Assembly: GCA_964507305.1 (NCBI GenBank)
Contig: CAZDPQ010000001.1
Location: 16,507 to 80,506, forward strand
Length of the DNA: 64,000 bases
Source: an uncultured Oscillospiraceae bacterium
GTDB lineage: Bacteria; Bacillota; Clostridia; Saccharofermentanales; UBA5734
Reading direction: 5' to 3'
Positions 11,640-60,582 of the stretch are shown here, in pieces. How positions within the stretch are numbered: position 1 is the stretch's first letter; each line of letters begins with the position of its first letter. A model generated the notes under the pieces. That model searched no databases, was not told the origin of the DNA, and saw nothing but the letters and a program-made list of their open reading frames with translations. A program made the translations under genes and the position numbers.

Positions 11640-13010
11640 TTAATAGAACGCTTTCAGCGACAAAACGGCATCTTCGGCATATACCAGGATCGTCCCGTCG
11701 TCCGTTTCGATGAAGGGCAGCCCGAAAATCCTGCTCGTGGGGCTGTCCGCCGAATTCCAGAAGATCCTGCCGGCGCAGAACGCATAAACAGCCGGATCCC
11801 CGCGCATCCGGGCGATCCGCGCCATGCAGGCGTATCCTGCCACGGATTCCGGGGAGGGGACCACGGATGCGGTCAGGATGTCATATGTCTGGTAAAAGGC
11901 CCGGTCATTCAGGAGGACCTGCTTGAGCCAGGAGTAGGTGGACTCTTCGAGTTCGCCCACTTCAGCAAGGCGGAGGGCAATCCGGATCTGGGCGCCGAAA
12001 TCGAACACGGGCGCGGCTCCGAGGTACGGCGCGTAGCCGCTGCCGTCCGCATAATAGCCGGCCCGGAAGAGCGGGGCGGGCGCATCCAGGAGCGCGCCAT
12101 TCACCGCGGCAAGGCTCGATGCGTAGACCGGCGCCCAGCGGCTGTCCAGTTCGCCGAGCAGACGCAGTGCGTACAGGTCGACTCCGGCCAAATCGACGAC
12201 CTTTGCTTTCACCGTGCCATCCGGTCCCGCGGACGGGGAAGCCGTCGGCTTCGGGGTCGGCGTGGCAGAAAAATCGGGGGTCGGGGTGGTCTGCGAAACC
12301 ACGATCTCCGTGTCGGGAGGGAGGATGCCGTACACTGCGCATTGCGGGTACAGCAGGTCCGCCAGCTGTCCGGCGGATGCAAGATAGCTGCCGTTCCGGA
12401 ATTTCGAATACCCTTCGAGTAGGACCCGGCAGTACCTCAGGTTATCGCCGGCCGAAATCCCGCTGTCCGTCACGCCGGAAACGTCACCGTCCGCCGTCGC
12501 GGCTTCGCGGACATAAAAGCCGTCATCGTTCCGGAACGTCCGGCTGATGAGCTTGTACAGCGCGTCGAATTTTCTCCGGTCCCCCTGCTCCGCGTAGTAA
12601 TCAAGCAGCTCGGCCTGATCCCGGAAAAGGAAGCGGCCGGAGACTTCCAGGGTCTTTTTCCATGTGCCGCCGGGGATCCGGCAGGATTCGGCAAGCAATC
12701 CGCCGCGCAGCAGAAGAGTGGAAACGGCACTGCGCATGTCGTCGGCGGATGCGTCGGACGCCATGGTCATGCCGCCGTCCGCGCGGCCCGGAAAGTCCAC
12801 GGCGGCGCTGAACGTGTATTCCGGCTGCACGGGCCGGGCCAGGGAAAAGTACACGGCGGCAGCCGCGGCTCCCGCCGCGAGAATGCCGGCGGCCGCGATA
12901 AGGAGGCGCCTCGCCGCCGGGTGCCTGCCGCCGGTGCCGGATCCGCGCATGCCCGGGCGCCGCTGTGTACCCCGGATCGATCGGAATGCTTTATTTTTCA
13001 CGGAGCTCAT
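11640..13010 (-). CDS. membrane-anchored extracytoplasmic protein of unknown function with an internal Pro/Thr linker
   Basis: N-terminal TM segment (LLIAAAGILAAGAAAAAVYF) and a TPTPDFSATPTPKPTASPS linker. The sequence vaguely resembles (alpha/alpha)6 GH8-like proteins, but I cannot confirm that. Confidence 0.45.
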   Translation of the reverse strand: MSSVKNKAFRSIRGTQRRPGMRGSGTGGRHPAARRLLIAAAGILAAGAAAAAVYFSLARPVQPEYTFSAAVDFPGRADGGMTMASDASADDMRSAVSTLLLRGGLLAESCRIPGGTWKKTLEVSGRFLFRDQAELLDYYAEQGDRRKFDALYKLISRTFRNDDGFYVREAATADGDVSGVTDSGISAGDNLRYCRVLLEGYSKFRNGSYLASAGQLADLLYPQCAVYGILPPDTEIVVSQTTPTPDFSATPTPKPTASPSAGPDGTVKAKVVDLAGVDLYALRLLGELDSRWAPVYASSLAAVNGALLDAPAPLFRAGYYADGSGYAPYLGAAPVFDFGAQIRIALRLAEVGELEESTYSWLKQVLLNDRAFYQTYDILTASVVPSPESVAGYACMARIARMRGDPAVYAFCAGRIFWNSADSPTSRIFGLPFIETDDGTILVYAEDAVLSLKAFY

Positions 13011-17962: not shown

Positions 17963-17980
17963 CACAATCCATCCTTTCAT

Positions 17981-18366
17981 TTATAAATGAAATATCTCAT
18001 TATGCGGTCTTATATAATGCTTGATCATACATCATTTAAATTTTCATCCGATAAAGGAATTGACCACCGTAATCCTCTGCATATCTTAAAGTAAAAATAT
18101 TTAGTAATATTCTTAAACCACCTCCTACATACTGCATAAAACTATGATTTGCTATAACTATAGCACTAAGTATATATTTGTGCAAGTAAATTAATTGTAA
18201 CTGAAATTTACAATATATTTTATTCAATTAGCGATTAGATATATTAATTTGATATATTGAGGACAAAGAAAGTAAGTGAGTAAATGGATACTATATATAT
18301 GCCGACAGTACTCACACTACTCTTCAATTATTAGATTATTAGTCATAATATATTGAGAATATATCC
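17981..18366. other. extremely AT-rich non-coding island
   Basis: A hand count of one 60-nt line (18161-18220) gives 12 G+C out of 60, against 45 out of 60 for a proS line. The only ORF is a 63-aa TTG-start ORF. There are internal collinear repeats at 18223-18262 and 18323-18359. Confidence 0.8.
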
Positions 18367-21036
18367 TTATTTTATAGCCGCCTTTTCGATCACGATGTCG
18401 CCGTCCCGGACCACGACTTTCGCCGTGTCGCCCGCAGCGACGATGCCGTCCAGCATCGCTTCGGACAGCCGGTCCTCGACCAGCGACTGGATGACCCGGC
18501 GGAGCGGCCGTGCGCCGTATGAAGGATCATAGCCCTTGTCCGCCAGAAAATCCCGCGCTTCGTCGGTCACATCGAGGGTGATGCCGGTTTCCGCGATGCG
18601 CTTGATCAGGTTGCGGATCATGATGCCGACGATCTGTTTCATGGAACCGCGGGTCAGCATGTGGAAGAAAATGATCTCGTCGACCCGGTTGATGAACTCC
18701 GGATTGAAGGTTTTCTTGAGCTCATCGACGACAAGAGCTTTCGCCTCGGCGAAATTGCGGCCTCCGTACATCCCGTCATCCGTCTCCTTGAGCACACTTT
18801 CCGCGGCATCGGAAGACTTCGGCAGGTCGAATCCGATCCGACGCCCCTGCGACCCGGACAGCATTCTCGCTCCGACATTGGAAGTCATGATGATGATGGT
18901 GTTCTTGAAATCCACCGTCCTGCCCTGTCCGTCGGTCAGCCGTCCGTCCTCCAGGATCTGGAGCAGCGAATTGAACACATCGGGGTGAGCCTTTTCGATC
19001 TCGTCGAACAGCAGGACCGAGTAAGGCTTGCGGCGGACTTTTTCCGTCAGCTGGCCGCCTTCGTCGTACCCGACATAGCCCGGGGGCGAGCCGATCAGCT
19101 TGCTGACATCGAATTTTTCCATATATTCGGACATATCAAGGCGGATCAGGGCGTTTTCCGTCCCGAACATCACCTCGGCAAGCGCCTTGGCCAGCTCGGT
19201 CTTCCCGACGCCGGTCGTGCCGAGGAAAATGAAGGAGCCGGCCGGACGCTTCGGGTCTTTCAGGCCCAGCCTGCCGCGGCGGATCGCTTTCGCCACGGAG
19301 CGGACCGCCTCATCCTGGCCGATCACCCTTTTGTGCAGCTCGTCCTCGAGGCTGCGCAGCTTCTCGGAATCCGTCTCCGTCAATTTCCGGACCGGGATCC
19401 CGGTCCAGTTCGACACGATGTTCGCGACCTCATCGACGGTCAGGATGTTGCTCTCGGTATCCTGGCGCTGCCTCCATTTCTCCCGCTCCGCATCAAGCTC
19501 CGAGGACGCCGCGGCGGCTTCTTCGCGGTATTTCGCCGCCGCCTCGAAATCTTCCCTTTCCGCCGCGGCTTTCTTGAGCCCGTTCAATTCACCGATCTTT
19601 TTCTCATATTCCTTGAAGGATTCAGGTTCGGTAAAAGACTTCATGCGGTGCCTCGAAGCAGCTTCGTCGATCAGGTCGATCCCCTTGTCCGGCAGGAAAC
19701 GGTCCGTGATATAGCGGACCGAAAGCTTGACCGCTTCGTCGATCACCTCGTCCGTGATTTTCACATTGTGGTGCGCCTCGTATTTGTCCCGGATCCCCTT
19801 GAGGATCAGGACCGCTTCCTCTTCCGACGGCTCTCCGACGGTGACAGGCTGGAAACGCCTGGCGAACGCGGCATCCTTTTCCACATGCTTCCGGTATTCA
19901 TCCGTCGTTGTCGCGCCGATGATCTGCAGCTGCCCGCGCGTCAGGACGGGCTTGAGGATGTTGGCGGCATCCATCGCCCCTTCCGCTCCGCCGGCGCCGA
20001 TCACGGTGTGGAGTTCGTCAAGGAAAATGATGACATTCTTTGCGACGATGGCCTCCGTCAGCGCGTTCTTGAAGCGTTCCTCGAACTCGCCGCGGTATTT
20101 CGCGCCGGCGATCATACCGGAAAGGTCCAGCGCGATGATCCGTTTGTTCTTGAGCATCTCGGGTGCATCCCCGTGCGCGATCTTCTGTGCGAGGCCTTCC
20201 GCGATCGCGGTCTTCCCGACGCCGGGCTCGCCGATCAGGCATGGGTTGTTCTTCGTCCGCCTGCATAGGATCTGCATGACTCTTTCGATCTCTTCCTCGC
20301 GTCCGATGATCGGGTCGAACTCCCCGTTCGACGCGGCACCGGTCATATCTCTGCCGTACTTGTCCAGATTGGGGGTTTTCCCCTTGCCTTTCGGCTTCCC
20401 GGCGGCGCCGGACTTTTCACCTGTACCGTATGTTTTCCCTATGTTCTGGTTGATCTCGTCCAGCTCGCTGTCGCCGGGGCCGTCCCCGCCGGATCCGGGC
20501 ATCCCGCCGCTGTCGTCTCCGCCGCCCTCGCCGCCGTCCTCCGATCCTTCTTCACCGCCGCCTTCGCCCTCGCCGGAAGACAGCGAGGCCATCAGCTCCG
20601 CGTAAACCCTGCGGACATCCGTGCCGGAAGCCGTCATGATCTTGAGCGCCATATTCTCGCCCTCGCGGATGATCGCGATCAGCAGATGCTCCGGTTCGAC
20701 CGCGCTCTGCCCCGCACTCCTTGCAGCCATCGCGGCGATCTCCAGCACGCGTTTCGTGCGCGGCGTGAACATCTCGATCATTTTATGGATCTCGACTTCC
20801 TCTCCGATATCCGCGTTTTCATCCATCTTTTTCCCCGAAACCTGTGCGAGCGCGTTGACCATCGCCTCGTCCGTCAGCCCTTCCGCCGACAGAAGGTCGA
20901 ACGCCGCGTTTTCGCCCTCGCCGAAAATCCCGTACAGCAGGTGTTCCGTTCCGACGTACTCCAGCCCGCTCCTGCGTGCCGCTTCGTACGCGCGCTTCAT
21001 CACCATGCCGGTCCTCTCCGAAAATCTCACCATCAT
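18367..21036 (-). CDS. clpC: ATP-dependent Clp protease ATP-binding subunit ClpC
   Basis: Double Clp_N repeat, two Walker A motifs (GEPGVGKTAIAEG and GTTGVGKTELAKA), and operon context after mcsB. Confidence 0.95.
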   Translation of the reverse strand: MMVRFSERTGMVMKRAYEAARRSGLEYVGTEHLLYGIFGEGENAAFDLLSAEGLTDEAMVNALAQVSGKKMDENADIGEEVEIHKMIEMFTPRTKRVLEIAAMAARSAGQSAVEPEHLLIAIIREGENMALKIMTASGTDVRRVYAELMASLSSGEGEGGGEEGSEDGGEGGGDDSGGMPGSGGDGPGDSELDEINQNIGKTYGTGEKSGAAGKPKGKGKTPNLDKYGRDMTGAASNGEFDPIIGREEEIERVMQILCRRTKNNPCLIGEPGVGKTAIAEGLAQKIAHGDAPEMLKNKRIIALDLSGMIAGAKYRGEFEERFKNALTEAIVAKNVIIFLDELHTVIGAGGAEGAMDAANILKPVLTRGQLQIIGATTTDEYRKHVEKDAAFARRFQPVTVGEPSEEEAVLILKGIRDKYEAHHNVKITDEVIDEAVKLSVRYITDRFLPDKGIDLIDEAASRHRMKSFTEPESFKEYEKKIGELNGLKKAAAEREDFEAAAKYREEAAAASSELDAEREKWRQRQDTESNILTVDEVANIVSNWTGIPVRKLTETDSEKLRSLEDELHKRVIGQDEAVRSVAKAIRRGRLGLKDPKRPAGSFIFLGTTGVGKTELAKALAEVMFGTENALIRLDMSEYMEKFDVSKLIGSPPGYVGYDEGGQLTEKVRRKPYSVLLFDEIEKAHPDVFNSLLQILEDGRLTDGQGRTVDFKNTIIIMTSNVGARMLSGSQGRRIGFDLPKSSDAAESVLKETDDGMYGGRNFAEAKALVVDELKKTFNPEFINRVDEIIFFHMLTRGSMKQIVGIMIRNLIKRIAETGITLDVTDEARDFLADKGYDPSYGARPLRRVIQSLVEDRLSEAMLDGIVAAGDTAKVVVRDGDIVIEKAAIK

Positions 21037-23401: not shown

Positions 23402-23444
23402 TATTTCCATTGTAATTCACGCTTCGGGGCACATGGTGTCAAAA

Positions 23445-25616
23445 CTATTTCAAATTTGTGAACGATATCGGGGATACGGGAGTGATCCGGAAAAGGCACG
23501 TTTCGAAACGCTTCATGAAGATCGTGAAGCGATCCCCTTCGAAAATCTCCGGGCTGCCGCTGTCCAGAAGGCGGACCGCCTTCATGCGGGACGGCAGGAT
23601 GATTTCTTTTTCTCCTTCGAAAGCGGAGTGGATGCAGAGAAAGCGGCGGTTCGCGTAAAGAACGTCCCCTTCCCGGCAGTACAGATGGACGCCGGCCTGT
23701 CCGAACACCATCCGGAGCGCCTGTGCGGTCATCCCCGGCAGCGCGCAGTACCAGGTCGTCGATCCGCCGACCTTTTTCCTGACGAATCCGGGGCGGCCGC
23801 TTCCTTCAAAATGCCCGAGGATTTCCGCTTCGGGATCCGCAATCTCCGCGCCGGGAGCAAAGGACCGGCGAGCCGCGAGGACCGCGCCGCCCCTCTCGGC
23901 ATCAAGGATCGGCGTTTCGTCGGTCCTGTCCGCCGGCCGGAGCCCGATCCCGGTCAAGGCCGACGAAAGATCCGTGCCGGCCGGCATGTCGTCCCGGACC
24001 GAGCCCGGCAGATAGGTGAAGCAAAGGTGGACGCCCGCTTCCCGGCACCGGCGCACCAGGGAATCCAGTTCCGCACTGTGGCGGCAGATCCCTGTGATGA
24101 GGACCAGGCGGCAGCGGCCGATGTCGATCCGGTCCGCTTCGCCCAGGTCGAAAATGTCGTAAGGCACGCCGCACGAGCCGAGCGTCAGCGGATAGGATGA
24201 CACCCATTCCTGCGCGATCCCGCAGGCGGTGTTGAAATATTTCTGCGAATCCGCATCGGTGATGACCGCGACCTGGCTGACGCTCCCGCGGCGGCGTTGC
24301 CGCAGACTTTCCTCCAGGAGCGGCGGATATTTCCCGAGCTCATCCATCAGGGTTTCCGACGCGTACCAGCCGCCCCACATGTCGAACCACCAGAGGCCGG
24401 TCCCCTGGATGAGGTTTCTGGTAAAGCATTTCCGGATCAGCCACAGGGAAACATCCTCCCGTTCCGGCCCCTCCCATACGCCGCCTTCATACCAGCCCGC
24501 CGGGGCGATCGACGGCCGGGCTTCTTTCAGCGGCCTCGTCAGATGGGTCCTGGTATCGCATTCGCTGAAAAACAGCTTGCCGGCGGCTTTGATGGAATCG
24601 AGGGGAAGCATGCAGGGCCAGTCGACGCCCGGAGACCGGTTGTACCAGTTGGGGCTGCACAGAAAATCGATATCGCGGCTCGCCAGGAGCTCTCCGAGTG
24701 CGAGATGGCCGTTCCGGGCGTCCGTCAGGGCCAGCGAATAGCCGTAAAAAGCGCCCGTCACCAGCCTGCGGTGTGTATGCTTTTTGATCAGCCGGCAAAA
24801 ATACAGGATGTCGTCCGCGATGATATGGTTGGTGTATTCGAGAAAATCCAGAAGCATTTTTCGGCTTATGTCGAAAAACGCCGGTCCGTCCGGAGCATAC
24901 ATCCCGTAATCCTCCGGGATCCGGATCGCGCCGAACGTGATCGCGCCGTCCCGGTATGCAGCCCGCAGGGCATCCTCCCTGCCGCCGTATTTCCGGAAAA
25001 CATACCGCGCGAAACCCTGCTGCGCGGCCATCCCCAGGCCGCCGTCCCGATTGCGGAAATGCACCCATTCTTCCGTTCCGCCTGCCGCGGGCTGGTATCC
25101 GATGATGCGGGCGGCATACGGCGACTGCTCCACGTGCCGGATCAGTGCAGCCAGCATGTCTCCCGCGTCCCTGCGCCATTGTTCCGAGGACATGGACACC
25201 CGGCATGTCCCTCCCCCCGCGCAGCCGTTCAGCTCCTCCGGAAACTCCCGTTCCCACCATTCCGGCATGTCGAGGCATACCCGCGGAAACAGGAAGGCCT
25301 GCGGATCGGCGGAGAGGATCCTTTCCACGTCGCGGTCGAATACCGCGAAATCCGGATCTCCTCTGCGATCGAATATGCCGCTGCGGAACGGTCCGATGCC
25401 GCTGTCCGCATTGATGCCTTTTCCGGCGAAATAGGACGGAAATGAATAGAGGGAATAGCCGGCCCGCGCGAAGTCGCCGTACCGTTCGCGGCCGTCAAGG
25501 TAGCAGAGGTAGGCCGCAGCCGGGACGGGGGATCCGTTGATGAAAAGCGCCGGGACCCCGCCGCGGTTTCTGACGCAGGATCGCACGCCGCTGACGGGTG
25601 AAAGCCTCTCATCCAT
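23445..25616 (-). CDS. large cytoplasmic protein of unknown function, possibly glycoside-hydrolase-like
   Basis: There is no signal peptide. Segments such as PRVCLDMPEWWEREFPEE resemble GH42/GHL-type TIM-barrel proteins, but I cannot assign a family. The preferred start is ATG 25616 (MDERL), after GGAGGG and 2 nt after the murR stop. The gene ends in TAG. Confidence 0.45.
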   Translation of the reverse strand: MDERLSPVSGVRSCVRNRGGVPALFINGSPVPAAAYLCYLDGRERYGDFARAGYSLYSFPSYFAGKGINADSGIGPFRSGIFDRRGDPDFAVFDRDVERILSADPQAFLFPRVCLDMPEWWEREFPEELNGCAGGGTCRVSMSSEQWRRDAGDMLAALIRHVEQSPYAARIIGYQPAAGGTEEWVHFRNRDGGLGMAAQQGFARYVFRKYGGREDALRAAYRDGAITFGAIRIPEDYGMYAPDGPAFFDISRKMLLDFLEYTNHIIADDILYFCRLIKKHTHRRLVTGAFYGYSLALTDARNGHLALGELLASRDIDFLCSPNWYNRSPGVDWPCMLPLDSIKAAGKLFFSECDTRTHLTRPLKEARPSIAPAGWYEGGVWEGPEREDVSLWLIRKCFTRNLIQGTGLWWFDMWGGWYASETLMDELGKYPPLLEESLRQRRRGSVSQVAVITDADSQKYFNTACGIAQEWVSSYPLTLGSCGVPYDIFDLGEADRIDIGRCRLVLITGICRHSAELDSLVRRCREAGVHLCFTYLPGSVRDDMPAGTDLSSALTGIGLRPADRTDETPILDAERGGAVLAARRSFAPGAEIADPEAEILGHFEGSGRPGFVRKKVGGSTTWYCALPGMTAQALRMVFGQAGVHLYCREGDVLYANRRFLCIHSAFEGEKEIILPSRMKAVRLLDSGSPEIFEGDRFTIFMKRFETCLFRITPVSPISFTNLK

Positions 25617-26517
25617 CCTGCCGCCCTCCGCTTTGCCGTACATCCGGATCCGTCCCCCGGTATTTTCTGTTCGAAACCTGCCGGCGCGTTTGGTCCAGCA
25701 GGACGCAAATGCGGTCATAATCCCGGCTGATGACCATGGCATAGAGAATGTCGATCATCAGGAGCGTAACGCCGCGTGAACTCATGGCGCCGCAGCGGAT
25801 GTCCGATTCGGGTGAGACCAGCTGTAGCCTGATGTCGGCAAGGTCTGCAAGACGGCTCTTTCCGAATCGCGTGATGGCGATCAGGGCCGCGCCGCTTTTT
25901 TTTGCCGCGGCAGCCGCGTCGATCGTTTCCCGGGTCTCGCCCGACCATGAAATGGCCACGGCCGCATTGCCGGGTCCGAGATTGGCTGCGGACAGGAGCT
26001 GGATATGCGGATCCTGACAATATACGGGGTGCTTGCCGATCCGCAGGAATTTCTGGTACGCGTCCATGGCCGCGACCGCGGAGGCTCCGACCCCGTAAAG
26101 GCCTATTTTTTCTGCTTTTCCGAGGACTTCCGCGGCTCGCTCCGCCTGGGCCCGGTCAAGGACAGCCAGGCTGTCGCGGATCGCCCGCACGGCGTTTCTG
26201 CCGATATGTTCCGCGATCGACGCGGTATCCTCTCCCGGCCGGATTTCCGGATAGCGATGAGGCTCCGTTCCGCTCTGCGACGCCGTATCGCCGGCGAGAC
26301 CGATGACGAGGTCGCGGTATCCGCCGCACCCGATCGTCCTGCACAGGCGCATGACGGCTGCCGTGCTGGCCCCGCTGCTTTCCGCGAGGCTGCGGATGGA
26401 TGATCGGACGGTTTCTTCCGGATGATCCAGGATGTATTCCGCCGCGATCCGCTCCGACGGGCTGAATGAACCCATCATTTCCCGGATTTTCAGCAGGATG
26501 CCCGCCATATGCCCCAT
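25609..26517 (-). CDS. murR: MurR/RpiR-family transcriptional regulator (HTH + SIS)
   Basis: N-terminal HTH_6-like region (LLKIREMMGSFSPSERIAAEYIL) and a SIS domain. Context is beside murQ. The start is 26517 or 26508. Confidence 0.8.
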   Translation of the reverse strand: MGHMAGILLKIREMMGSFSPSERIAAEYILDHPEETVRSSIRSLAESSGASTAAVMRLCRTIGCGGYRDLVIGLAGDTASQSGTEPHRYPEIRPGEDTASIAEHIGRNAVRAIRDSLAVLDRAQAERAAEVLGKAEKIGLYGVGASAVAAMDAYQKFLRIGKHPVYCQDPHIQLLSAANLGPGNAAVAISWSGETRETIDAAAAAKKSGAALIAITRFGKSRLADLADIRLQLVSPESDIRCGAMSSRGVTLLMIDILYAMVISRDYDRICVLLDQTRRQVSNRKYRGTDPDVRQSGGRQDG

Positions 26518-26542
26518 TCCTTTCTGATCCCTCCGGCGCGGA

Positions 26543-27481
26543 TCATAAGCCGTTCCCCGGCCTGCCGGCTTTCTCCAGTGCCAGGAGGACGGCGCCATAG
26601 GCCGGCTCCCGGAGCGGCTCCGCCATTCTCAGGCGGGGACAGTCGGCCTGCACGTGATCAAGGACCGTTTCCCGGACTCTGCCGCACCGTTCGATCACGC
26701 TTCCGCTGTAGGACCAACGGCATTCGCCGCTGCCGCCGAACGCCCTGCTGTAAACCGTCCGTAGCAGGGCGGCCAGCTCGCAGCCGGCTCTGACCAGCAG
26801 ATCCCGCGCAGTCGCGTCACCGTTTTCCTCCGCCTGCCGGCAGATCTCGGCCAGCCGCGCGATCTCGCTTTTCTCCCTCGCCGGATCGTAGACATAGTCG
26901 ATCAGCTGTTCGTGGGAACGGATGCCGAGGGTTTTGAAAACAAGAGCCTGCAGTTGCGACGTCGCGATCCCCCGGTCGAAATCCTTCATGATGCTTTGAA
27001 GGACCATCCGGCCGATGCCGTATCCTCCGCCGTCGTCTCCGATCAGATGCCCCCAGCCGCCGGCCCGGTACAGCGTGCCATCCTCCGCAGCCCCGAGGCA
27101 GATCGAGCCGGTCCCCGCAATCAGGACGATGCCCTTCCGACCACCCATGGCGCCGTACAGAGCGGCCAGCGCGTCCGTCTCTGTGGATTTGGATCCTGCA
27201 AGGCCTGTCGCTTCGAGGACCTGCAGGTAAAGGTGCCGGTTCCGTGCGGTCCCGCCGCCCGCCGCACCGATGCAGACGCCCGCGCAGCGCGCCTTGTCCA
27301 GTGCGTGCTGTCCGGTCAGCGTGTCGATGGCCGCACAGAGATGCTCGCGGAACAGATCCGCAGACACCGCGTTGATATTTCCAGCCGGAGCGGCGCCGTC
27401 CGCGAGGACCCTGCCGTCCAGATCCGCGATCTCAATGCGTGTCTTCGTCGCTCCCGCGTCGATGCCGACCACATATTCCAT
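26543..27481 (-). CDS. murK: BadF/BadG/BcrA/BcrD-type sugar kinase, MurNAc/GlcNAc kinase-like
   Basis: MEYVVGIDAGATKTRIE and GWGHLIGDDGGGYGIG ATPase motifs. GGAGGGA RBS before ATG 27481. Adjacency to murQ matches the arrangement described for Clostridium acetobutylicum MurK. Confidence 0.7.
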   Translation of the reverse strand: MEYVVGIDAGATKTRIEIADLDGRVLADGAAPAGNINAVSADLFREHLCAAIDTLTGQHALDKARCAGVCIGAAGGGTARNRHLYLQVLEATGLAGSKSTETDALAALYGAMGGRKGIVLIAGTGSICLGAAEDGTLYRAGGWGHLIGDDGGGYGIGRMVLQSIMKDFDRGIATSQLQALVFKTLGIRSHEQLIDYVYDPAREKSEIARLAEICRQAEENGDATARDLLVRAGCELAALLRTVYSRAFGGSGECRWSYSGSVIERCGRVRETVLDHVQADCPRLRMAEPLREPAYGAVLLALEKAGRPGNGL

Positions 27482-27517
27482 CCCTGATCCCTCCATCATT
27501 TCACCATCATCTCTCCG

Positions 27518-28429
27518 TCATTTCTCCATCATCTCTCTATTATCCGGATCCGCCGCGGCTCTCACATTTCCGCCAGCCTGTCTCAGGCGCTCCGCCGCTT
27601 CACCGGGACTGCATCCCGCCGCGATCGACACGATTGCGGCGCCGGCATCCCAGCCGCAGCGCACAAGCGCGCCTCGAGCCTGCTCTTCCGGCACCCCCGC
27701 AGCCCACGCTACGATCCCGGCCGCCCGCTTCCTCAGCTTGTCATTCGTCGCGCGCAATCCGGCCATCCGGTTGCCGTAGACTCTGCCGAACCGGATCATG
27801 GAAGCCGTCGAAAGCATATTCAGCACCATCTTCTGCGCGGTGCCGGCCTTCAGCCGTGTGGATCCGGCGATCACTTCCGGCCCGGTGACCGGCGCGATGA
27901 CCACATCCGCCAGGCCCGCCAACGGCGGATCTTCCGTATTGCACAGGCAGATGACCGCAGCATGCCTGTCCCTGGCGTATCCCATCGCCCCGGCGACATA
28001 CGGCGTGCTTCCGCTGGCAGCGATCCCGACGACGGCATCGCGTCCGCACACACCGAGCCGCGCGGCATCCTCCGCGCCTTGTCCGGTATCATCCTCCGCG
28101 CCTTCCGCCGCCTCCCGCAGCGCGATGTCCCCTCCCGCGATCACGCCTGTCACGGTTTCGGGACCGATCCCAAAGGTCGGAGGGCATTCGGAAGCATCCA
28201 GCACCCCGAGCCTGCCGCTGGTACCCGCGCCGAAATAGAGCAGCCTGCCGCCTCCGCGCAGCTTATCCGTGATGAGGTCCACCGCCCGGGCAATCGCAGG
28301 AAGCTCTTCTCCGACACGTTCCGCGACGCGCTTATCCTCCTCGTTCATGATCCTCAGGATCTCAAGGGTACTCCGCAGATCGATATCGGCGGTGCGGTCA
28401 TTGGCTTTCTCGGTTGCGCGCGGATCCAT
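27518..28429 (-). CDS. murQ: N-acetylmuramic acid 6-phosphate etherase
   Basis: TEKANDRTADIDLRSTLEILRIMNEEDKRVA and GAGTSGRLG SIS motifs typical of MurQ. Confidence 0.9.
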   Translation of the reverse strand: MDPRATEKANDRTADIDLRSTLEILRIMNEEDKRVAERVGEELPAIARAVDLITDKLRGGGRLLYFGAGTSGRLGVLDASECPPTFGIGPETVTGVIAGGDIALREAAEGAEDDTGQGAEDAARLGVCGRDAVVGIAASGSTPYVAGAMGYARDRHAAVICLCNTEDPPLAGLADVVIAPVTGPEVIAGSTRLKAGTAQKMVLNMLSTASMIRFGRVYGNRMAGLRATNDKLRKRAAGIVAWAAGVPEEQARGALVRCGWDAGAAIVSIAAGCSPGEAAERLRQAGGNVRAAADPDNREMMEK

Positions 28430-28488
28430 GGTTTCCTTTCATGCAGGTTCGCCCGACGGGCGGTATGCTGATACTTTTTTACATCTTG

Positions 28489-28517
28489 ATCGTAATATTT
28501 TTAACACGTTGTGTCAA
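28489..28517 (-). promoter_or_regulatory. putative sigmaA promoter of the murQ operon
   Basis: On the minus strand: TTGACA, a 17-nt spacer, then TACGAT, within a locally AT-rich patch. Confidence 0.5.
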
Positions 28518-28693
28518 GACGGAACCCGTCGGATGCAGAGAAAATAGCAGGACAGCCTTAAAACGCGCTATAATGAAGATGAAGACGGGCGGTCCGCCGG
28601 AGCGGCATCCGGAGGAGCCCTGATGATAAAAAAGCAGGTGCGGGCTCCCGCGATCCGTTTACGGGTCCCGGTTTCGGCGAAGCGATCAAGTCC

Positions 28694-28999
28694 GTGAATG
28701 CCGAATATCTCATCGCTGCCGTGCCTGTCCTCGCGTTGTCCCTGGTGCTCGCCTGGCTGTCATTCACGGCCCGGATGCGGGATGCGTGGCGCAAAAGCAT
28801 CCTGTGGACGGCTATTGTCTTTGTTCTCGATCTGGCGCTGAGCATCATCAACGCGGTCGACACAGGCGAATTCTCCTTGTCCGCATTCGATAGGATTTTC
28901 GTAAACACCCTGTGCACACCCGGCTACTACGCAGTCCTGGCCGCCCTATTCGCCGGCCCGCTGCTGTATGCCCGCATCAGGCATCTCAAACGGGAATGA
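28694..28999 (+). CDS. small hypothetical membrane protein
   Basis: GTG start and three hydrophobic helices. No recognisable family. The opposite-strand ORF 28558..28917 looks like a shadow ORF. Confidence 0.4.
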   Translation: MNAEYLIAAVPVLALSLVLAWLSFTARMRDAWRKSILWTAIVFVLDLALSIINAVDTGEFSLSAFDRIFVNTLCTPGYYAVLAALFAGPLLYARIRHLKRE

Positions 29000-29028
29000 G
29001 CGAGTGCATGACGGCTGCGGTATTATGG

Positions 29029-29063
29029 AAAAACCCGCCCGGCTGCAAGTCGGGCGGGTCTTC
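29029..29063 (-). terminator. rho-independent terminator (copy 1 of a perfect 35-bp direct repeat)
   Basis: On the minus strand: ACCCGCCCG, a 9-nt loop, CGGGCGGGT, then TTTTT. It sits just downstream of the PIN gene stop. It is identical to 29889..29923. Confidence 0.8.
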
Positions 29064-29089
29064 ATTTACCGGTTTCCCTGTTGTGTGAT

Positions 29090-29491
29090 TTACGGATGCT
29101 GCAAATCTGTATCTTCTAAATATTGTGCGACTGTGATGCATTTCGGACGTTCGATATGTAGACTTAAAAAATCCTTATCTCCGGTCAGAATCAGATCGAT
29201 ATCGGCAATCATTGCTGCATTCAGTATTGGCTGGTCTTTACCATCACGAATGATCTTTTCGGTATGTTCGGCGGCCGGAATAAGCTCATACGATAATTCA
29301 GCCAGTAAAATTTCTGCGGCCGGCAGGTATTTTACAGCTTTTCGCCGTATGATCTCACGAAATTCATCAATATTTTGATTACATAAGACTATCTCGTGAT
29401 TTTCCGCTACATGAAGCAATGCTTTGGCAGGATTTGATTCCGGAAATAATAACGCTGAGAATAACACATTCGTATCGATCAAAATCCTCAT
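29090..29491 (-). CDS. PIN-domain toxin (VapC-like)
   Basis: MRILIDTNVLFSALL... with conserved acidic positions (D at the N-terminus, ...LTGDKDF). It starts immediately after the antitoxin TAG. A hand count of one 60-nt line gives about 40% GC. Confidence 0.8.
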   Translation of the reverse strand: MRILIDTNVLFSALLFPESNPAKALLHVAENHEIVLCNQNIDEFREIIRRKAVKYLPAAEILLAELSYELIPAAEHTEKIIRDGKDQPILNAAMIADIDLILTGDKDFLSLHIERPKCITVAQYLEDTDLQHP

Positions 29492-29755
29492 CTATTTTTT
29501 TCCATGCCGTAAATCATTGACCAGATTCTGCACGTCGTCATCATCACGAATCCCCATTTCATCCGCAGCATCGGCAAACGCCTTCTGTGCTTTTTGCAGC
29601 GCTCGACCTGATGCATTGGTTAAAACAATTTCACCTTCCTGATTCTGGAAAAAAAGCAATTTGTCACCGGATTTCAACCCGAGAAGGCGGCGGATCTCAA
29701 TCGGAACTGTGATCTGACCATTTGATGATATCTTAGCTAAATTCATATCGACCAC
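29492..29755 (-). CDS. AbrB/MazE/SpoVT-family antitoxin
   Basis: SSNGQITVPIEIRRLLGLKSGDKLLF looped-hinge-helix motif. The ORF-track start is GTG 29755. ATG 29746 follows AAAGGGTGG. Confidence 0.8.
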   Translation of the reverse strand: MVDMNLAKISSNGQITVPIEIRRLLGLKSGDKLLFFQNQEGEIVLTNASGRALQKAQKAFADAADEMGIRDDDDVQNLVNDLRHGKK

Positions 29756-29795
29756 CCTTTCTAAAATTGAATTCCAAAGAATTCTTTATATCTAC

Positions 29796-29824
29796 ATTAT
29801 ATTCCAAATGAAACCCCTTGTAAA
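29796..29824 (-). promoter_or_regulatory. putative promoter of the toxin-antitoxin operon with repeated TTTGGAAT motif
   Basis: On the minus strand: TTTACA, a 17-nt spacer, then TATAAT. TTTGGAAT occurs twice, 30 bp apart (plus-strand ATTCCAAA at 29771-29778 and 29801-29808). One copy overlaps the -10 region. Confidence 0.5.
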
Positions 29825-29888
29825 TCCATGGGCTGAAAATGAGAAGAATCCAATCACGTTCCGAAACATTACCAGCGTATATATCAAC

Positions 29889-29923
29889 AAAAACCCGCCC
29901 GGCTGCAAGTCGGGCGGGTCTTC
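29889..29923 (-). terminator. rho-independent terminator of tRNA-Gln (copy 2 of the 35-bp direct repeat)
   Basis: The same hairpin plus T5, starting 5 nt after the tRNA CCA end. Confidence 0.8.
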
Positions 29924-29927
29924 GTTC

Positions 29928-30001
29928 TGGCTGCCGAACAGGGATTTGAACCCCGACAGACTGCTCCAGAGGCAGTTGTGCTACCATTACACAATTCGGC
30001 A
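29928..30001 (-). tRNA. tRNA-Gln (anticodon CUG), CCA encoded
   Basis: Hand-folded 74-nt cloverleaf. Acceptor stem UGCCGAA/UUCGGCA with U1:A72. D arm GUGU-AAUGGUA-GCAC. Anticodon arm ACUGC-CUCUGGA-GCAGU. T arm CGGGG-UUCAAAU-CCCUG. Discriminator G followed by CCA. Confidence 0.88.
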
Positions 30002-30012
30002 CCGCGTTTGAG

Positions 30013-30041
30013 ATTATATCACGTGCTCTTTGTTTGTGCAA
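30013..30041 (-). promoter_or_regulatory. putative sigmaA promoter of tRNA-Gln
   Basis: On the minus strand: TTGCAC, a 17-nt spacer, then TATAAT, ending 11 nt upstream of the tRNA 5' end. Confidence 0.6.
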
Positions 30042-48973: not shown

Positions 48974-50362
48974 CTAATTTTGTATGGAACCTGCTCCGCC
49001 GAGCCAAGCGACTGCCGCTCTGTTGAAACCAAAGTCCGGCGAACGGCTGAAGTAGAAAAGACGGGTGCCCATGTCCGCATAGCTGAAAACGGCGACAACA
49101 AGGGCTCCGGAAGAGAACATCCGGTCAAGGTATTCCCTGGCGTCCTTTTCTTCCGTCAGGCCTGTCGCATAGCCTTCCACACAGCCGAAATACGGCATGT
49201 TCGGATCCGCGTCGTGTATCTCGGATTTCAGAACATCCAGATCATAGGGGCAGGTGACCGGATTCATCGTGAAACCGGGCACACTGTAGGGATTCACCGC
49301 ACACCAGGTAGGCGGATCGAACGTGGACTGGGTGATCCGGGATGTCGACAGAGAAACCATGTGGGTGAATATTTTCATGCGCGGGATCCCGGACTCGAAA
49401 ATCCGTTTGGAAACGTTCTCAGCAAAGTCATGGATCACCTGATACAACAGTCGTCTTGTATAAGCTGAGACAGAGGTATTGTTCTGCTTCGCTTCCGTAT
49501 CCAGCTTCACCTGGTCGTATCCCAGGGAGTGAAGAGCTGCATAGCCGTATTGTGTGAATTCCCAAGGCTGCATGGAGTCCCCGGTGATGATGTCCGACGG
49601 TGGATCTCCGGGATCCAGTCCGATCAGGTTATTGTTTTCGGAATAATCCGGGATGTGGGTTTCCCATCCCGAAGACAGACCCGCGAAAAGATAGGCTTTT
49701 CCTTCCTTCCGCAGCTTTGAAAGGCGTTTGTTCAGCGGCTCCAGCACGCCTTTTTGCAGGGAATCGGACAACAGTTTCATAAATTCGGGAGATGCCAGAT
49801 TCGGGAAAGCCGGGGAACGGAGCCACACTCCCCAGTTGAACCAGAATGCCGGAAGTTTCCCGTATGCTTTCTGGCCGCCCCAGATTTCATCTTTTTCCGG
49901 AAAAGTCACCCACTCGCACATGTCGGGATGTTCGTAGAATTTCACGGCGGCATCACCACCGAAATATGTGGTGTAATTGGTGATGTCATCCAATTGGAAG
50001 TACACGGGGATATCGTATTTTTCGGCGTAATCGAAGCCGGTGTCGATCGTATGGCGCATCTGGTCGATCGATTGAGTGATCAGCATCGGTCCGACGACGC
50101 CGAACGCATACATCCTTTTCGACTTCGGATCGATCTCTCCGTACAGCTGCTTCATTTCCGGAAGGTAGCCTTCGATTTCATCTACATGCTTGTTCGTAAA
50201 CATGAACATGAGATAACGGATCGGCTCCTCTTCATCGGCCGGCTGCTTCCCACATGACACGGCGGTCTGGAGCAGCAGGCAGGTGAGAATGAGAAAAGCT
50301 GCGGCAGCCTTCCTTCCGGAACTCATCCGGATCATAGTCTGTCCTGGGATCATGCGGCTCAT
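48974..50362 (-). CDS. uncharacterised lipoprotein, paralogue A of a two-member family in this island
   Basis: Lipobox LLQTAVSC. Collinear similarity with 60583..62157 over the whole mature protein (for example PVYFQLDD, FWFNWG, GWETHIPDYS, PVTCPY). TAG stop. Confidence 0.65.
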   Translation of the reverse strand: MSRMIPGQTMIRMSSGRKAAAAFLILTCLLLQTAVSCGKQPADEEEPIRYLMFMFTNKHVDEIEGYLPEMKQLYGEIDPKSKRMYAFGVVGPMLITQSIDQMRHTIDTGFDYAEKYDIPVYFQLDDITNYTTYFGGDAAVKFYEHPDMCEWVTFPEKDEIWGGQKAYGKLPAFWFNWGVWLRSPAFPNLASPEFMKLLSDSLQKGVLEPLNKRLSKLRKEGKAYLFAGLSSGWETHIPDYSENNNLIGLDPGDPPSDIITGDSMQPWEFTQYGYAALHSLGYDQVKLDTEAKQNNTSVSAYTRRLLYQVIHDFAENVSKRIFESGIPRMKIFTHMVSLSTSRITQSTFDPPTWCAVNPYSVPGFTMNPVTCPYDLDVLKSEIHDADPNMPYFGCVEGYATGLTEEKDAREYLDRMFSSGALVVAVFSYADMGTRLFYFSRSPDFGFNRAAVAWLGGAGSIQN

Positions 50363-50409
50363 CTACGACTCCACTCCTTTCTGCGCCGACTCCGGCATCG
50401 GGACAGGGA

Positions 50410-50439
50410 AAGTCCCGCACGCCGGAGCGTGCGGGACTT
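50410..50439 (-). terminator. strong hairpin, possible terminator/attenuator between the 266-aa gene and paralogue A
   Basis: Perfect 12-bp stem (AAGTCCCGCACG / CGTGCGGGACTT) with a 6-nt loop. The downstream tract on the minus strand is only TTTCCC, so termination efficiency is uncertain. Confidence 0.45.
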
Positions 50440-50461
50440 CAGCGGTCTGTCATGCCTGTGT

Positions 50462-51262
50462 TTATTTCCTCTTCCCTGCCTTCAGGAACAATCCCGAGGA
50501 CGCGAGCGCAAGGCCGATCATGCCGATCATGGTTACATCGGAGGTCTGCGGGCTGGTGCCTTCGGTCGGCGCGGCGGTCGGTTCCACGGTTGGCGTAGCT
50601 GTAGGTGCGGCTGCGTTGGGATCGACGTCACTCACTTCGCGGACAGTCCAGGAACGGGCATTCGGTGCATCGCCGGTGCCGTCGTAGGCGGCAAACGCGA
50701 GGTAGGTATTGCCGGCTTCATCGGTAAAATCGGTCGTGGCCAGCGTGGCGAATGATGTGTTATCCGGATTGACCTTTGTCCCGTTCAGAAACAGGTTCCA
50801 TGTGCTGTTGGCTTCGTCGCGCACAAATTCGAATTTCAGGTCGCCGATTGAATTCGCGGTGGTCTGTACATTTTCAAAATAAGCCTTGCTGAAGCTGGTC
50901 TGGTAGCAGGAAACATTCAGCGTGCCGCCGCGGTTCTTGAGCATCAGCACGATTCCATTGGGATCGTTGTTGAGGGGATTCATGGCATAATCGGAGGTGT
51001 TCACGAAAGCAAGGGCGATCCAGGCGTCAGCTGGCAAATCCACGAGCTTGTCCACATTCATGTCGACTGTCAGATAGCCGGGGGTCAGAGGTGCTTTCAG
51101 GGATGCATCGGCGAACATGTGAACGCCGATCTCGTTCAGGCCGCAGGTGGAATAGTAGTCCCTCCACTCTTCGAGGGTTTGTCCGTTTGCGGCGGAAACG
51201 GACATTCCGCCGGCCAGGACAAGGGTCATGAGCAACACGGTGATCAATGCGATTTTCTTCAT
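50462..51262 (-). CDS. secreted protein with beta-rich (jelly-roll-like) domain, PT linker and C-terminal hydrophobic anchor
   Basis: Signal peptide MKKIALITVLLMTLVLAGGMSVSA. PTATPTVEPTAAPTEGTSPQTSD linker. C-terminal MIGMIGLALASSGLFLKAGKRK. Paralogous to 53587..54591. Confidence 0.6.
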   Translation of the reverse strand: MKKIALITVLLMTLVLAGGMSVSAANGQTLEEWRDYYSTCGLNEIGVHMFADASLKAPLTPGYLTVDMNVDKLVDLPADAWIALAFVNTSDYAMNPLNNDPNGIVLMLKNRGGTLNVSCYQTSFSKAYFENVQTTANSIGDLKFEFVRDEANSTWNLFLNGTKVNPDNTSFATLATTDFTDEAGNTYLAFAAYDGTGDAPNARSWTVREVSDVDPNAAAPTATPTVEPTAAPTEGTSPQTSDVTMIGMIGLALASSGLFLKAGKRK

Positions 51263-51310
51263 TTTCTCTCCTCCTTTTTATTCCTAAATGTGTTTTTCAC
51301 ATTTATGACA

Positions 51311-53590
51311 CTATTCTTCGATGGTGACAAACAATGCTCTGCCAGCCCCGATCGTTAACCCGGTCAAAGACAAATGCTCCTGAGACACATCGTTGGCTTC
51401 GAGTTCGCGCACATCGCCCGTGAAGGGATCCCAGATCCGCACGGTCTTGCCGTTCCCGTTGAACTTGACCGTGATCGTCTGGTCTTTGGAATTCGTGTTG
51501 ACCAGCATATAGACGCTGCGTCCCTGGAACTGTTCCTTCCGGTAGACGATGTTCCGGTTGCCCCCGGAAATCAGGATATCCCGGATATTCAGGTCTTTCA
51601 TGCCGTCTGGTAGATCGTAGTTCGACACAAACTCCCGTACATTCCCGTTTTTTTTCAATACCGCAAGCGCGCTCTCTGCCTTGTCCGCATCCGCCCCGTT
51701 TTCAGTCAGCACGGACCCGATGTCCTGAAGAAAGATCTTCACTCCGCTATCCGCGGCTTTCCGCAGAAAATCGATCGTTCCGGCGCTGAGCGCTGGCGTC
51801 TGGGGAATGACAAGAACGCTGTATTCGCTGTTTCCCGGCGTTATGATCTTCCCATCTTTCAGCCGGCATCCCTGAAGATTAAGGAAATCGAGGTAGTCGT
51901 AATCGATCTGGTTTTTCAGGAGTTCGACGCTGAGTTCCCTGAAGTTGTCGCTGAGGTAACTGACGGATTTGTTGAAGCTGTAAAGATTTTCGGGAGCCGT
52001 TGTCTGGGTCCATATCCCTTCGATCGGGTAATAGACCGCAACCCGCGCGATATGTTTTCCACCGTCCAGCATATAGCCGAATCGGCCGATGGTGTTGGTG
52101 AAGAGCCGGTTTTCATCCTCCGTCATGTTGTTGATGGGGTAATACGAGTTGATCTGGCTGACTCCAAGGGCATACTGGACGGCGACCGAACCGATCCGGT
52201 CCATGACGCTTCCTTTGGTTCCGTCGAAAGCGTCCGACACCTCGCTCATCACCTTCTCACGTTTGGAATAGTCTGCTGCGGACGATGCGAATTTCACAGC
52301 GGTTGAAGCCCAGCCCAGCGCGGTCTCCGGATGGGAGGTCAGCAGATCGATTCCCGGGTACTGCATGTTTTTCATGATCTGGAGATAATCGCCTTCGAAT
52401 ATTGGATGTTTGCTGATATCTTCTTCAAAGAGCAAATGTCCGGACATAGCGATCCCGTGTTCATCGCAGAATTTTCCGATCTGGCCTGTGTAATTCTCCG
52501 CCACCAGTTCGGATAAAGTCCTGTAGTAATCCCATCGGAATTTCAATGCTTCTTCCGAGTTCTCGGAAAAGAGGAGTGGCAGGTATTTTGCCGCTTCATA
52601 ACCGCGGCGTTTCTTGAATTCGTCAAGTAGTTTGTCTCCGTAATTCGCGGTGGTCAGCAACGGGATCGCCGGATCCGGCGCGTCGATCACCGCGGGTGTC
52701 GTCGGCGGAGGATCGACAAAATATGTGCCCATCAAAGAAGGTTCATCTGTAAAAAACGCCTCGATTCCTTTGCCGAAATACTGTCCGACATGATCGAAAT
52801 ACCTCTGGTAAGTGACATCGATGAACTTCCGCACGGGATCCGGATCGAGCAGGTCGATGTACCGCCTGACTTCTGCCCAGTTGAATGCCGCGTGGGTATT
52901 TTCGAAGAAATTCTTCGAATATACGCAGACAGCAGTCCAGCCGGCTTCCGGAGCGGTCCAGGACAGAGTCCCGTCCGAATCCAGCCGATCGGAAAGGTCT
53001 TGATAGGCGGCATAGTCGATATTCTCGACAGACGTTCCGCGAAATGCAAACGCAGCAACACAGGCGATATGGCCGTACGGTTTCCGGATCGTCAGGGTCT
53101 CCTTCCCTTCGGATACCACGTTCAGGCAAACAATTCCTTTGGCCTGCCAGTCCATGTTATCCTTAAGGACCAGACCACCGGCCGAACCGCTGGGGTAACC
53201 GCGCTCGTCGTAGATCCACATCCGAAGCCCCTGATCTTCGATCGTATACTTGACCAGGTCTTCGAAATCCGACCACATCTCATCGTTGACAAGATACTGT
53301 GCAAAGGATACATTCGTGACGACTCCGCCGTATCCGAGCCCTTTGAGATTGAAAACCGCAGCTTTGTCCAGGTTGCTGTGGATGACCGGTATCGGTCTGA
53401 AAGCAACATCCGGATCGAGAAATTCAGCATCGCTGAAGGTTTTCATCGGCAGATCGTCCACCGATGGCGCGCAGGATGAACCTAAAGCAGTAAAAATCAA
53501 CATGACAGCCATTGCTCCGGTGAATAGAATTTTTCTCCATGCCTTGACAGGCATTTCAGGGACTTCCTGTAAAATTTTTCGCATGATCAT
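51311..53590 (-). CDS. large exported protein, probable glycoside hydrolase of unassigned family
   Basis: N-terminal TM/lipoprotein-like signal (MLIFTALGSSC). Segments such as RRYIDLLDPDPVRKFIDVTYQRYF...FFTDEPS recall the glycosylhydrolase-like jelly-roll (GH106-like) proteins. The family cannot be fixed by eye. Confidence 0.5.
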   Translation of the reverse strand: MIMRKILQEVPEMPVKAWRKILFTGAMAVMLIFTALGSSCAPSVDDLPMKTFSDAEFLDPDVAFRPIPVIHSNLDKAAVFNLKGLGYGGVVTNVSFAQYLVNDEMWSDFEDLVKYTIEDQGLRMWIYDERGYPSGSAGGLVLKDNMDWQAKGIVCLNVVSEGKETLTIRKPYGHIACVAAFAFRGTSVENIDYAAYQDLSDRLDSDGTLSWTAPEAGWTAVCVYSKNFFENTHAAFNWAEVRRYIDLLDPDPVRKFIDVTYQRYFDHVGQYFGKGIEAFFTDEPSLMGTYFVDPPPTTPAVIDAPDPAIPLLTTANYGDKLLDEFKKRRGYEAAKYLPLLFSENSEEALKFRWDYYRTLSELVAENYTGQIGKFCDEHGIAMSGHLLFEEDISKHPIFEGDYLQIMKNMQYPGIDLLTSHPETALGWASTAVKFASSAADYSKREKVMSEVSDAFDGTKGSVMDRIGSVAVQYALGVSQINSYYPINNMTEDENRLFTNTIGRFGYMLDGGKHIARVAVYYPIEGIWTQTTAPENLYSFNKSVSYLSDNFRELSVELLKNQIDYDYLDFLNLQGCRLKDGKIITPGNSEYSVLVIPQTPALSAGTIDFLRKAADSGVKIFLQDIGSVLTENGADADKAESALAVLKKNGNVREFVSNYDLPDGMKDLNIRDILISGGNRNIVYRKEQFQGRSVYMLVNTNSKDQTITVKFNGNGKTVRIWDPFTGDVRELEANDVSQEHLSLTGLTIGAGRALFVTIEE

Positions 53591-54591: not shown

Positions 54592-54634
54592 TTTTTCATT
54601 CCTCCATTCATTATGATCCGGTCTGCGCGGCGCT

Positions 54635-55546: not shown

Positions 55547-55572
55547 ACATTTCTCCAAGCCGTTTTTTCGGG

Positions 55573-56403: not shown

Positions 56404-56415
56404 GCTATCCTCCTC

Positions 56416-57369: not shown

Positions 57370-57415
57370 GAAATGATTCTCCTGATCGGCTGCATTTGCC
57401 GATGCGCTGAAGGAT

Positions 57416-57880: not shown

Positions 57881-57899
57881 CGCGCATCCGCTCCCGGCG

Positions 57900-59408: not shown

Positions 59409-59683
59409 GATCGATCCCCCTTGGTTTCTCCGATATCCTGTCTTTTCATCATTATAGTAAATCATCGGACAGGGTGAAAATACAGGGAATTGGTTCAACA
59501 TTTTATTTTTTTGGCTTTCATGTGATTCCATGGCTTCTCCGTGCCGATCCGGCATCCGCTGCTTCTCCCCTTGGGACTTAGCCGATCAGGTCACTTTACA
59601 AAAAACGGAAAACTACTTATTATATAAACACAGGGAAACCATCGTGCCCATTATCGTTATTTCGCCTAAGAAACGGAGGATAT

Positions 59684-60448: not shown

Positions 60449-60582
60449 GAACGGTCCGGAGCCATTTCCACAAAAAAGTAAGCCACTCCGCTGTTTCATC
60501 AGATCCGGCATTCGGGTACGCTAAAAAAACATTGGTATCCGGGGTGCAATGCCCCGGATACCGCCGGATCGGAGTCATATCG

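Follow-up and report, generated by a model that had tools for sequence, protein, structure and literature searches.

The stretch of DNA analyzed here, a window of 64,000 nucleotides from an uncultured Oscillospiraceae bacterium (contig CAZDPQ010000001.1 of assembly GCA_964507305.1, positions 16,507 to 80,506; all coordinates below are those of the window unless another contig is named), contains a small toxin-antitoxin (TA) operon that lies between a tRNA gene and a convergent host gene and is bracketed by two identical copies of a 35-bp palindrome predicted to terminate transcription. The tRNA gene, tRNA-Gln(CUG), was located on the minus strand at 29928-30001 by both ARAGORN and Rfam; the gene is intact, with a promoter of its own (TGCACA-16-TATAAT at 30040..30013), and promoter and tRNA are conserved in relatives. 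In the Rfam search the tRNA alone was significant, a match to isrK at E = 0.37 being judged due to chance. On the other side, a convergent open reading frame (ORF) of 101 codons on the plus strand (28694..28999, hereafter ORF101), which is a called protein on an NCBI contig and has a G+C content at third codon positions (GC3) of 0.74, encodes a predicted membrane protein and bounded the original terminator on the side away from the tRNA. Between these two host genes extend copy 1 of the palindrome (29029..29063), an inserted segment of 825 bp (29064..29888) holding the TA operon and copy 2 of the palindrome (29889..29923), all three read on the minus strand.

The 35-mer (AAAAACCCGCCCGGCTGCAAGTCGGGCGGGTCTTC) matches the window at 29029-29063 and 29889-29923 only, even when three mismatches are allowed, the number of matches expected from shuffled sequences being zero. 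As the original prediction had reported, the two copies are identical at 35 of 35 positions and the adjoining bases differ on both sides, exact matching having recovered both copies and no other; the match reaches 38 nt when one mismatch is allowed. This is the sole long exact direct repeat of the 64 kb, in which a search with a looser stem pattern revealed no further copy. On the minus strand, the 35-mer reads GAAGA-CCCGCCCG-ACTTGCAGC-CGGGCGGG-TTTTT and pairs, from the outermost position inward, as G.T, A-T, A-T, G.T, A-T, eight G-C pairs, one mismatch and two further pairs around a single central base. It is a complete 17+1+17 quasi-palindrome, GC-rich like the host in contrast to the 40% GC of the insert, and in the reconstructed pre-insertion sequence the symmetry extends no further than the 35-mer. 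Since the block of identity ends where the symmetry ends, the duplicated block is exactly the palindrome.

Regarding its function, each copy forms on the minus strand a hairpin of 12-13 pairs, including eight G-C pairs and one A/C mismatch, followed by U5. The free energies (-23.7 and -28.6 kcal/mol) correspond to z-scores of about -4.6 to -4.9 and were equaled by no shuffled sequence. The T5 run of the original prediction was thus found as described, and its 9-bp stem gave way to this longer, once-mismatched one. Copy 2, whose hairpin reaches -28.6 kcal/mol, starts 4 nt beyond the encoded CCA of tRNA-Gln, leaving the tRNA outside the duplicated block, while copy 1 lies 26 nt past the toxin stop codon. 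The 35-mer is predicted to be a strong intrinsic terminator, copy 2 serving tRNA-Gln and copy 1 the TA operon, an assignment that had already been proposed and with which both the placement and the hairpin folds agree. Moreover, the plus strand of the 35-mer folds as strongly (-27.4 kcal/mol for copy 1), with a weaker T-rich tail, so that the 35-mer looks like a bidirectional terminator and likely acts as such between tRNA-Gln and ORF101. Copy 1, which on the plus strand stands 29 nt from the stop codon of ORF101, is likely the present terminator of that gene. No fragment of the tRNA 3' end was found beside this distal copy, an 8-nt inverted match being regarded as chance.

The inserted segment stands out by its composition, with 40.4% GC against 61-63% in the 5 kb on each side and with GC3 values of 0.37 and 0.42 in its two genes against 0.74-0.84 in host genes. 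From this contrast, the cassette is very probably foreign and horizontally acquired. The low G+C content and the horizontal acquisition announced in the original prediction are both upheld, the latter also by the spread of the family over diverse Clostridia contexts. The insert has no terminal inverted repeats (score of 7 against a shuffle mean of 7.9), and its non-coding ends, 64 bp upstream and 26 bp downstream of the genes, have no match elsewhere in the window or in the loci fetched for comparison and hold no evident gene remnant.

Within the insert, a single sigma-70-type promoter (TTTACA-17-TATAAT, 29796..29824 on the minus strand), with the boxes and spacing given in the original prediction, precedes the two genes, the antitoxin coming first and the reading frames abutting. 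The antitoxin (84 aa, 29492..29746, minus strand) has an N-terminal AbrB/SpoVT/MazE swapped-hairpin fold; it matches MazE_antitoxin/AbrB (PF04014) at 44.4 bits (cut-off 24.7) and TIGR01439 at 46.7 bits (cut-off 28.3), as well as the SpoVT and AbrB N-terminal domains in the PDB. The PIN-domain toxin (133 aa, 29090..29491, minus strand), whose ATG directly follows the antitoxin TAG, matches PIN_3 (PF13470) at 54.3 bits (cut-off 27) and TIGR00305 at 45.2 bits (cut-off 29.15), and keeps all the residues that are invariant in 24 family members (itself included), among them D6, E43, D99 and T103-G104-D105. Sequence comparison of the toxin with solved structures gave no match at E <= 0.01, and the PADLOC defence-system search gave none for the pair. 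The two families and the toxin span are those of the original prediction; its antitoxin start, a GTG at 29755, is probably to be replaced by the ATG at 29746, as in the 84-aa form called on an independent contig (L001, described below). Two 13-nt direct repeats, TTTGGAAT(A/T)(T/C)AAT, lie at 29766..29808 on the minus strand with a spacing of 30 nt, one of them overlapping the -10 box. Alignment of homologous cassettes shows this region to be conserved together with the promoter boxes, and the repeats are candidate operator sites for the AbrB-fold antitoxin. Judged by these features, the pair is almost certainly an intact and ordinary PIN/AbrB type II TA module. It resembles the VapBC-like systems that join a PIN_3/TIGR00305 toxin to an AbrB/SpoVT/MazE antitoxin in gene order, abutting frames, domain scores above cut-offs and invariant residues, and it possesses, as type II modules do, its own promoter and operator-like repeats, nothing notable differing in the genes.

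The host origin of the repeat could be assessed in related genomes. The nearest relatives of the neighboring DUF3842 protein, 75-78% identical, are found in metagenome-assembled genomes (MAGs) of Saccharofermentanales, exact look-ups of the DUF3842, MurQ and antitoxin proteins having led to no empty site from within the species. In three of them (L022, L027 and L031), the order histidine kinase, DUF3842, promoter, tRNA-Gln(CUG) and terminator is kept, with one terminator at the position of copy 2 and no TA genes there, in support of the original claim that the insertion took place at the terminator downstream of the tRNA. Their alignment shows that promoter and tRNA are conserved and that the terminator holds its position with a stem sequence differing by lineage, which indicates that the 35-mer is a lineage-specific host sequence. 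We consider it likely that the repeat is of host origin, the tRNA-proximal hairpin being native, fast-evolving, lineage-specific host DNA.

The same flank is occupied differently in one of these relatives. In L022 (Saccharofermentanales MAG GCA_054607175.1), an island of at least 4 kb with 30-36% GC and small hypothetical genes (L022:6590-10693) begins about 6 nt past the tRNA-Gln terminator, in a host of about 51% GC, and runs to the contig end with an rve_2 fragment. In this clade, insertions may recurrently land on the downstream side of tRNA-Gln. Two other contigs from relatives (L023 and L024) stop 61-148 bp past the DUF3842 gene, at or just before tRNA-Gln; these ends may reflect strain heterogeneity or a repeat at the site.

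Toxin homologues are abundant, more than 1400 having been found in Clostridia metagenomes at <=75% identity. The only near-identical copy of the cassette is L001 (ENA ERZ27282906, 846 bp), which comes from another sample and differs by two single-nucleotide polymorphisms (SNPs). Spanning from the nucleotide that follows the center of the copy-2 palindrome to the fourth nucleotide of copy 1, this contig breaks within both hairpins, with 14 nt of one unit missing, and independently confirms the hairpin-cassette junctions. Its breaks probably reflect coverage or GC bias at the hairpins and the GC-rich flanks. More distant members of the family were found in four other independent contexts, namely next to truA, in a TraG/sortase conjugative element, on the IMG/VR contig L033 and, in L050, between a nadR-like gene and an aldo-keto reductase gene; in none of these is there a flanking repeat beyond chance. 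With L033, L006 and L012, DNA homology of the cassette runs from the -35 box to the toxin stop codon only. Homology being so confined, and flanking repeats being absent from the four contexts, the hairpin does not belong to the cassette family, and its duplication appears to be peculiar to this insertion; the possibility that terminator duplication is a general trait of the TA family was discarded on the same four contexts. No plasmid or phage record matched the cassette in a blastn search in distant mode.

Two of these homologous loci have peculiarities of their own. In L033 (IMG/VR UViG_3300029136_000014), whose toxin is 70% identical, a 21-bp exact copy of the antitoxin ribosome-binding site and start region (AAAGGGTGATTTTATGAATTT; L033:2229-2249 and 2938-2958) lies past the cassette, where it now heads a different small ORF, and suggests module shuffling. 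A fifth, distant context (loci L034-L049) is that of prophages: in related prophage loci (L034-L041), a PIN/AbrB cassette of 41% identity has similar hairpins on both sides (L036:2184-2208 and 2917-2951; AAAG(T/C)AGGGA...TCCCTGCTTTT), with a 12-nt exact match and with the upstream hairpin apparently in the 5' leader. This hairpin similarity fades in 86%-identical variants and may be due to chance or to an old duplication.

Altogether, there is good support for the foreign origin of the cassette, for its position in the native terminator and for the present occurrence of that terminator on both of its sides. The insertion site and the duplication are those of the original prediction, and what had been proposed there as insertion or recombination at the hairpin keeps a mechanism that we can only infer. 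In the reading that we favor, with a probability of about one half, the locus results from a one-off, structure-directed, de novo duplication of the host terminator and not from att-type recombination. The TA operon would have inserted once into the 35-bp palindromic terminator between tRNA-Gln(CUG) and the convergent ORF101, the 35-mer being a host sequence, not a site brought by the cassette, which would have been copied during the insertion under the direction of the palindrome structure. Two routes can be envisioned. Staggered breaks might have occurred at the two feet of the palindrome, or of an extruded cruciform, followed by capture of a foreign fragment of about 825 bp and by gap filling; alternatively, a replicative template switch might have led out of, and then back into, the template around the hairpin. 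Either route would produce a target duplication equal to the whole palindrome. The expected order of the empty, pre-insertion site would be tRNA-Gln, GAAC, the 35-mer and CCATAATACC. De novo duplication is favored because the repeat is perfect, specific to the host, coextensive with the palindrome and not a feature of the cassette family.

Several points weigh against this reading. It concerns one instance only, its mechanism is deduced from the geometry alone, and we know of no documented bacterial process that yields a 35-bp target duplication around arbitrary cargo; full-text literature searches for terminator duplication at insertions or for attB sites within terminators brought up no pertinent report. 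Minimal tyrosine-recombinase sites also look like palindromes of about 34-35 bp (loxP and FRT, 34 bp), and recombination between two identical recombinase sites would give the same picture. The low-GC island of L022 also starts a few bases past the tRNA-Gln terminator, which hints at a site-directed process at the tRNA-Gln locus. Finally, L001 stops short of the host flanks, and the integrated and circular forms of the cassette cannot be told apart from it.

These points lead to the main rival explanation, which we regard as possible, if rather unlikely, and in which site-specific recombination took place at an att- or lox-like site, the 35-bp palindrome being a minimal recombinase site. Either an 860-bp circle made of promoter, TA genes and terminator/site would have joined an identical chromosomal site by means of a tyrosine recombinase acting in trans, or a larger island would have integrated and decayed to its addictive TA module, leaving attL and attR in the manner of a cis-mobilizable element (CIME) or of a dif module; the circular junction would then read ..GGTAAAT-35mer-GTTGATAT... 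Perfect direct repeats do bracket an integrase-less insert beside a tRNA gene, the repeat has the symmetry and the length of a minimal recombinase site, the L022 island right after the tRNA-Gln terminator suggests a hotspot, and TA modules are expected to outlast the decay of islands, a TA module being a plausible last survivor. The locus resembles CIMEs and decayed tRNA-associated islets in its integrase-less insert, its perfect direct repeats (35/35, as expected of attL and attR) and its tRNA neighbor. Indeed, CIMEs are by definition devoid of integration and transfer genes and retain attL and attR (PMC5704250, PMC6323972). The present element differs from them in being only 860 bp long and in having a repeat that contains no part of the tRNA, starts 4 nt past the CCA and equals exactly the downstream terminator palindrome. 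The contrast with classical att duplication at tRNA 3' ends, drawn in the original prediction, thus holds, the repeat excluding the tRNA and no tRNA fragment accompanying the distal copy. A fast-evolving, lineage-specific terminator is moreover an awkward site, since it would have to be matched at 35/35 positions by a copy on the incoming element, and the four other independent cassette contexts have no conserved flanking site. The sequence between the repeats that is not part of the TA genes amounts to 64 bp and 26 bp only. The Pfam scan of ORFs across the window revealed neither an integrase nor a transposase nor Cas1, in keeping with the earlier statement that no integrase or transposase accompanies the cassette. 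Neither a related autonomous element nor an attP matching the 35-mer was found among the window ORFs or, using the core 25-mer, in viral, genome and metagenome collections. An exact search of this 25-mer in GTDB species genomes, JGI metagenomes and IMG/VR gave two enterobacterial palindromes only, in Candidatus Erwinia dacicola (L025) and OFEI01000565 (L026), and the hairpin core is absent from the viral contigs of IMG/VR. Both matches belong to a different, longer palindrome without a tRNA and were set aside as coincidence.

Two further explanations deny that the insertion duplicated anything. The 35-mer could be a dispersed element of the repetitive extragenic palindromic (REP) type, or a member of a common terminator family, with the cassette merely lying between two members; REP-like repeats do take the form of GC-rich palindromes followed by T-runs, and our copy count covers 64 kb of the genome. 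We hold this to be very improbable, given that these 64 kb contain two copies of the 35-mer, even at up to three mismatches or with a loose stem, where a REP-like element would have many dispersed ones, that they form the only long exact repeat, that the tRNA-proximal copy holds the ancestral terminator position and that the public collections yielded no relevant match. The original prediction had named such a dispersed repeat as the finding that would speak against it, and neither the window nor these collections supplied one. Least probable of all, in our view, is an assembly artefact, by which a foreign fragment would have been joined to the chromosome during metagenome assembly through a short sequence common to both. 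The source is apparently a metagenome-assembled contig, L001 stops inside both hairpins short of the host flanks, and the single NCBI contig (94,447 bp) to which the records of the flanking genes belong has no record of the TA proteins. Common assemblers finish, however, with k-mers longer than a 35-bp repeat. In L001, which was obtained from another sample and differs by two SNPs, the cassette is independently continuous with the 3' half of the host hairpin at one end and with the first 4 nt of that hairpin at the other. Nor would a host-specific, GC-rich hairpin be expected at both ends of a low-GC fragment, and the missing protein records may be no more than a gene-calling miss in atypical DNA. 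In the exact protein look-ups, ORF101, MurQ, the histidine kinase and DUF3842 were each recorded from that one NCBI contig (94,447 bp), the PIN toxin was recorded only from L001, and neither form of the antitoxin nor any wrong-frame ORF of the cassette was recorded. Either gene calling missed the genes in this atypical 40% GC DNA or the NCBI contig represents the empty-site allele.

De novo duplication of the terminator can also be set against other known routes by which small cassettes enter chromosomes. Xer-dependent modules, such as the integrative mobile elements exploiting Xer (IMEX) and the pdif modules of Acinetobacter plasmids, are small and recombinase-less, often hold TA genes and use short palindromic sites with the enzymes of the host. 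The locus described here differs from them by its GC-rich terminator hairpin, which has no evident similarity to the dif consensus, a 28-bp site with XerC and XerD arms on either side of a 6-bp spacer, and by the direct orientation of its two copies, which lie on a chromosome, next to a tRNA gene. Chromosomal integrons commonly contain TA cassettes that bring their own promoters, and integron gene cassettes are of similar size (~0.8 kb) and end in a hairpin-forming site. An integron attC was nonetheless rejected: the 35-mer is shorter than attC (57-141 bp) and lacks R''/R' boxes and extrahelical bases, its flanks do not fit RYYYAAC or GTTRRRY, no integrase/IntI is encoded among the scanned window ORFs, and Rfam matched nothing but the tRNA. 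Likewise, an insertion sequence or transposon was discarded for want of terminal inverted repeats and of a transposase domain among the scanned ORFs. The target-site duplications of transposons usually measure 2-14 bp, 35 bp being far longer. A further likeness, as a mechanistic analogy only, is to the integration of spacers into CRISPR loci and to the Cas1-type integrases of casposons, in which a partly palindromic unit of about 28-37 bp is duplicated via staggered attacks at its ends; here the insert is an 825-bp segment without terminal repeats, and the window contains neither a CRISPR array nor a cas1 gene.

As for the consequences of the insertion, tRNA-Gln, the TA operon and the convergent ORF101 each probably keep a full terminator, and for this reason the insertion would be nearly neutral for its neighbors. 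In this TA family, the antitoxin represses the promoter and neutralizes the toxin, and the PIN nuclease is set free when the locus is lost; the pair, if it behaves as its family does, would then resist its own loss through post-segregational toxicity. On a more general level, palindromic intrinsic terminators might constitute structure-defined landing pads for the integrase-less capture of foreign cassettes, with the hairpin duplicated on both sides, an extension that we put forward as speculative and doubtful. It could proceed by staggered cleavage of the palindrome or cruciform, formally similar to that of CRISPR repeats, or by a trans-acting recombinase on a lox-like terminator, and, if true, every transcription unit would keep its terminator and insertion would be almost cost-free. 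While the TA genes are routine, the footprint of their insertion is an unusual variant of repeat-flanked, integrase-less islets: a perfect copy of a whole host-specific terminator palindrome on each side of an 825-bp foreign operon, without recombinase, terminal repeats or tRNA-derived att. If this footprint recurs, it would offer small selfish cassettes a route into intergenic terminators that leaves the neighbors unharmed, and it could be searched for as identical terminator pairs a few hundred bases apart around compositionally foreign DNA. One case alone makes it an interesting anomaly, not a demonstrated mechanism.

Across the whole window, the Pfam scan of plausible ORFs identified proS, ackA and pta, the ctsR-mcsA-mcsB-clpC operon, a murQ cluster, pst-phoU-phoRB, the trp operon, lipoate genes, a V-type ATPase and a sugar-utilisation cluster, that is, only housekeeping functions; two long ORFs (11640-13010 and 23445-25742) have no Pfam match. 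In L027-L031, the ctsR operon directly follows tRNA-Gln, whereas in the window ctsR is about 6.4 kb away. Here, about 5.5 kb of DNA of host-like GC (23432-29000) intervene between tRNA-Gln and ctsR-mcsA-mcsB-clpC and hold ORF101, murQ, a BadF-type kinase gene, rpiR and a 765-aa ORF without Pfam match. Just downstream of clpC, about 390 bp without genes (17980-18367) have 24-34% GC in a region of about 60% GC. Finally, lower GC (50-56%) marks a 13-kb block (49000-62000) that may be an acquired carbohydrate-utilisation island; it codes for a GH106 rhamnosidase-like protein, a nucleoside hydrolase, parts of a sugar ABC transporter and an AraC regulator, and showed no mobility genes.

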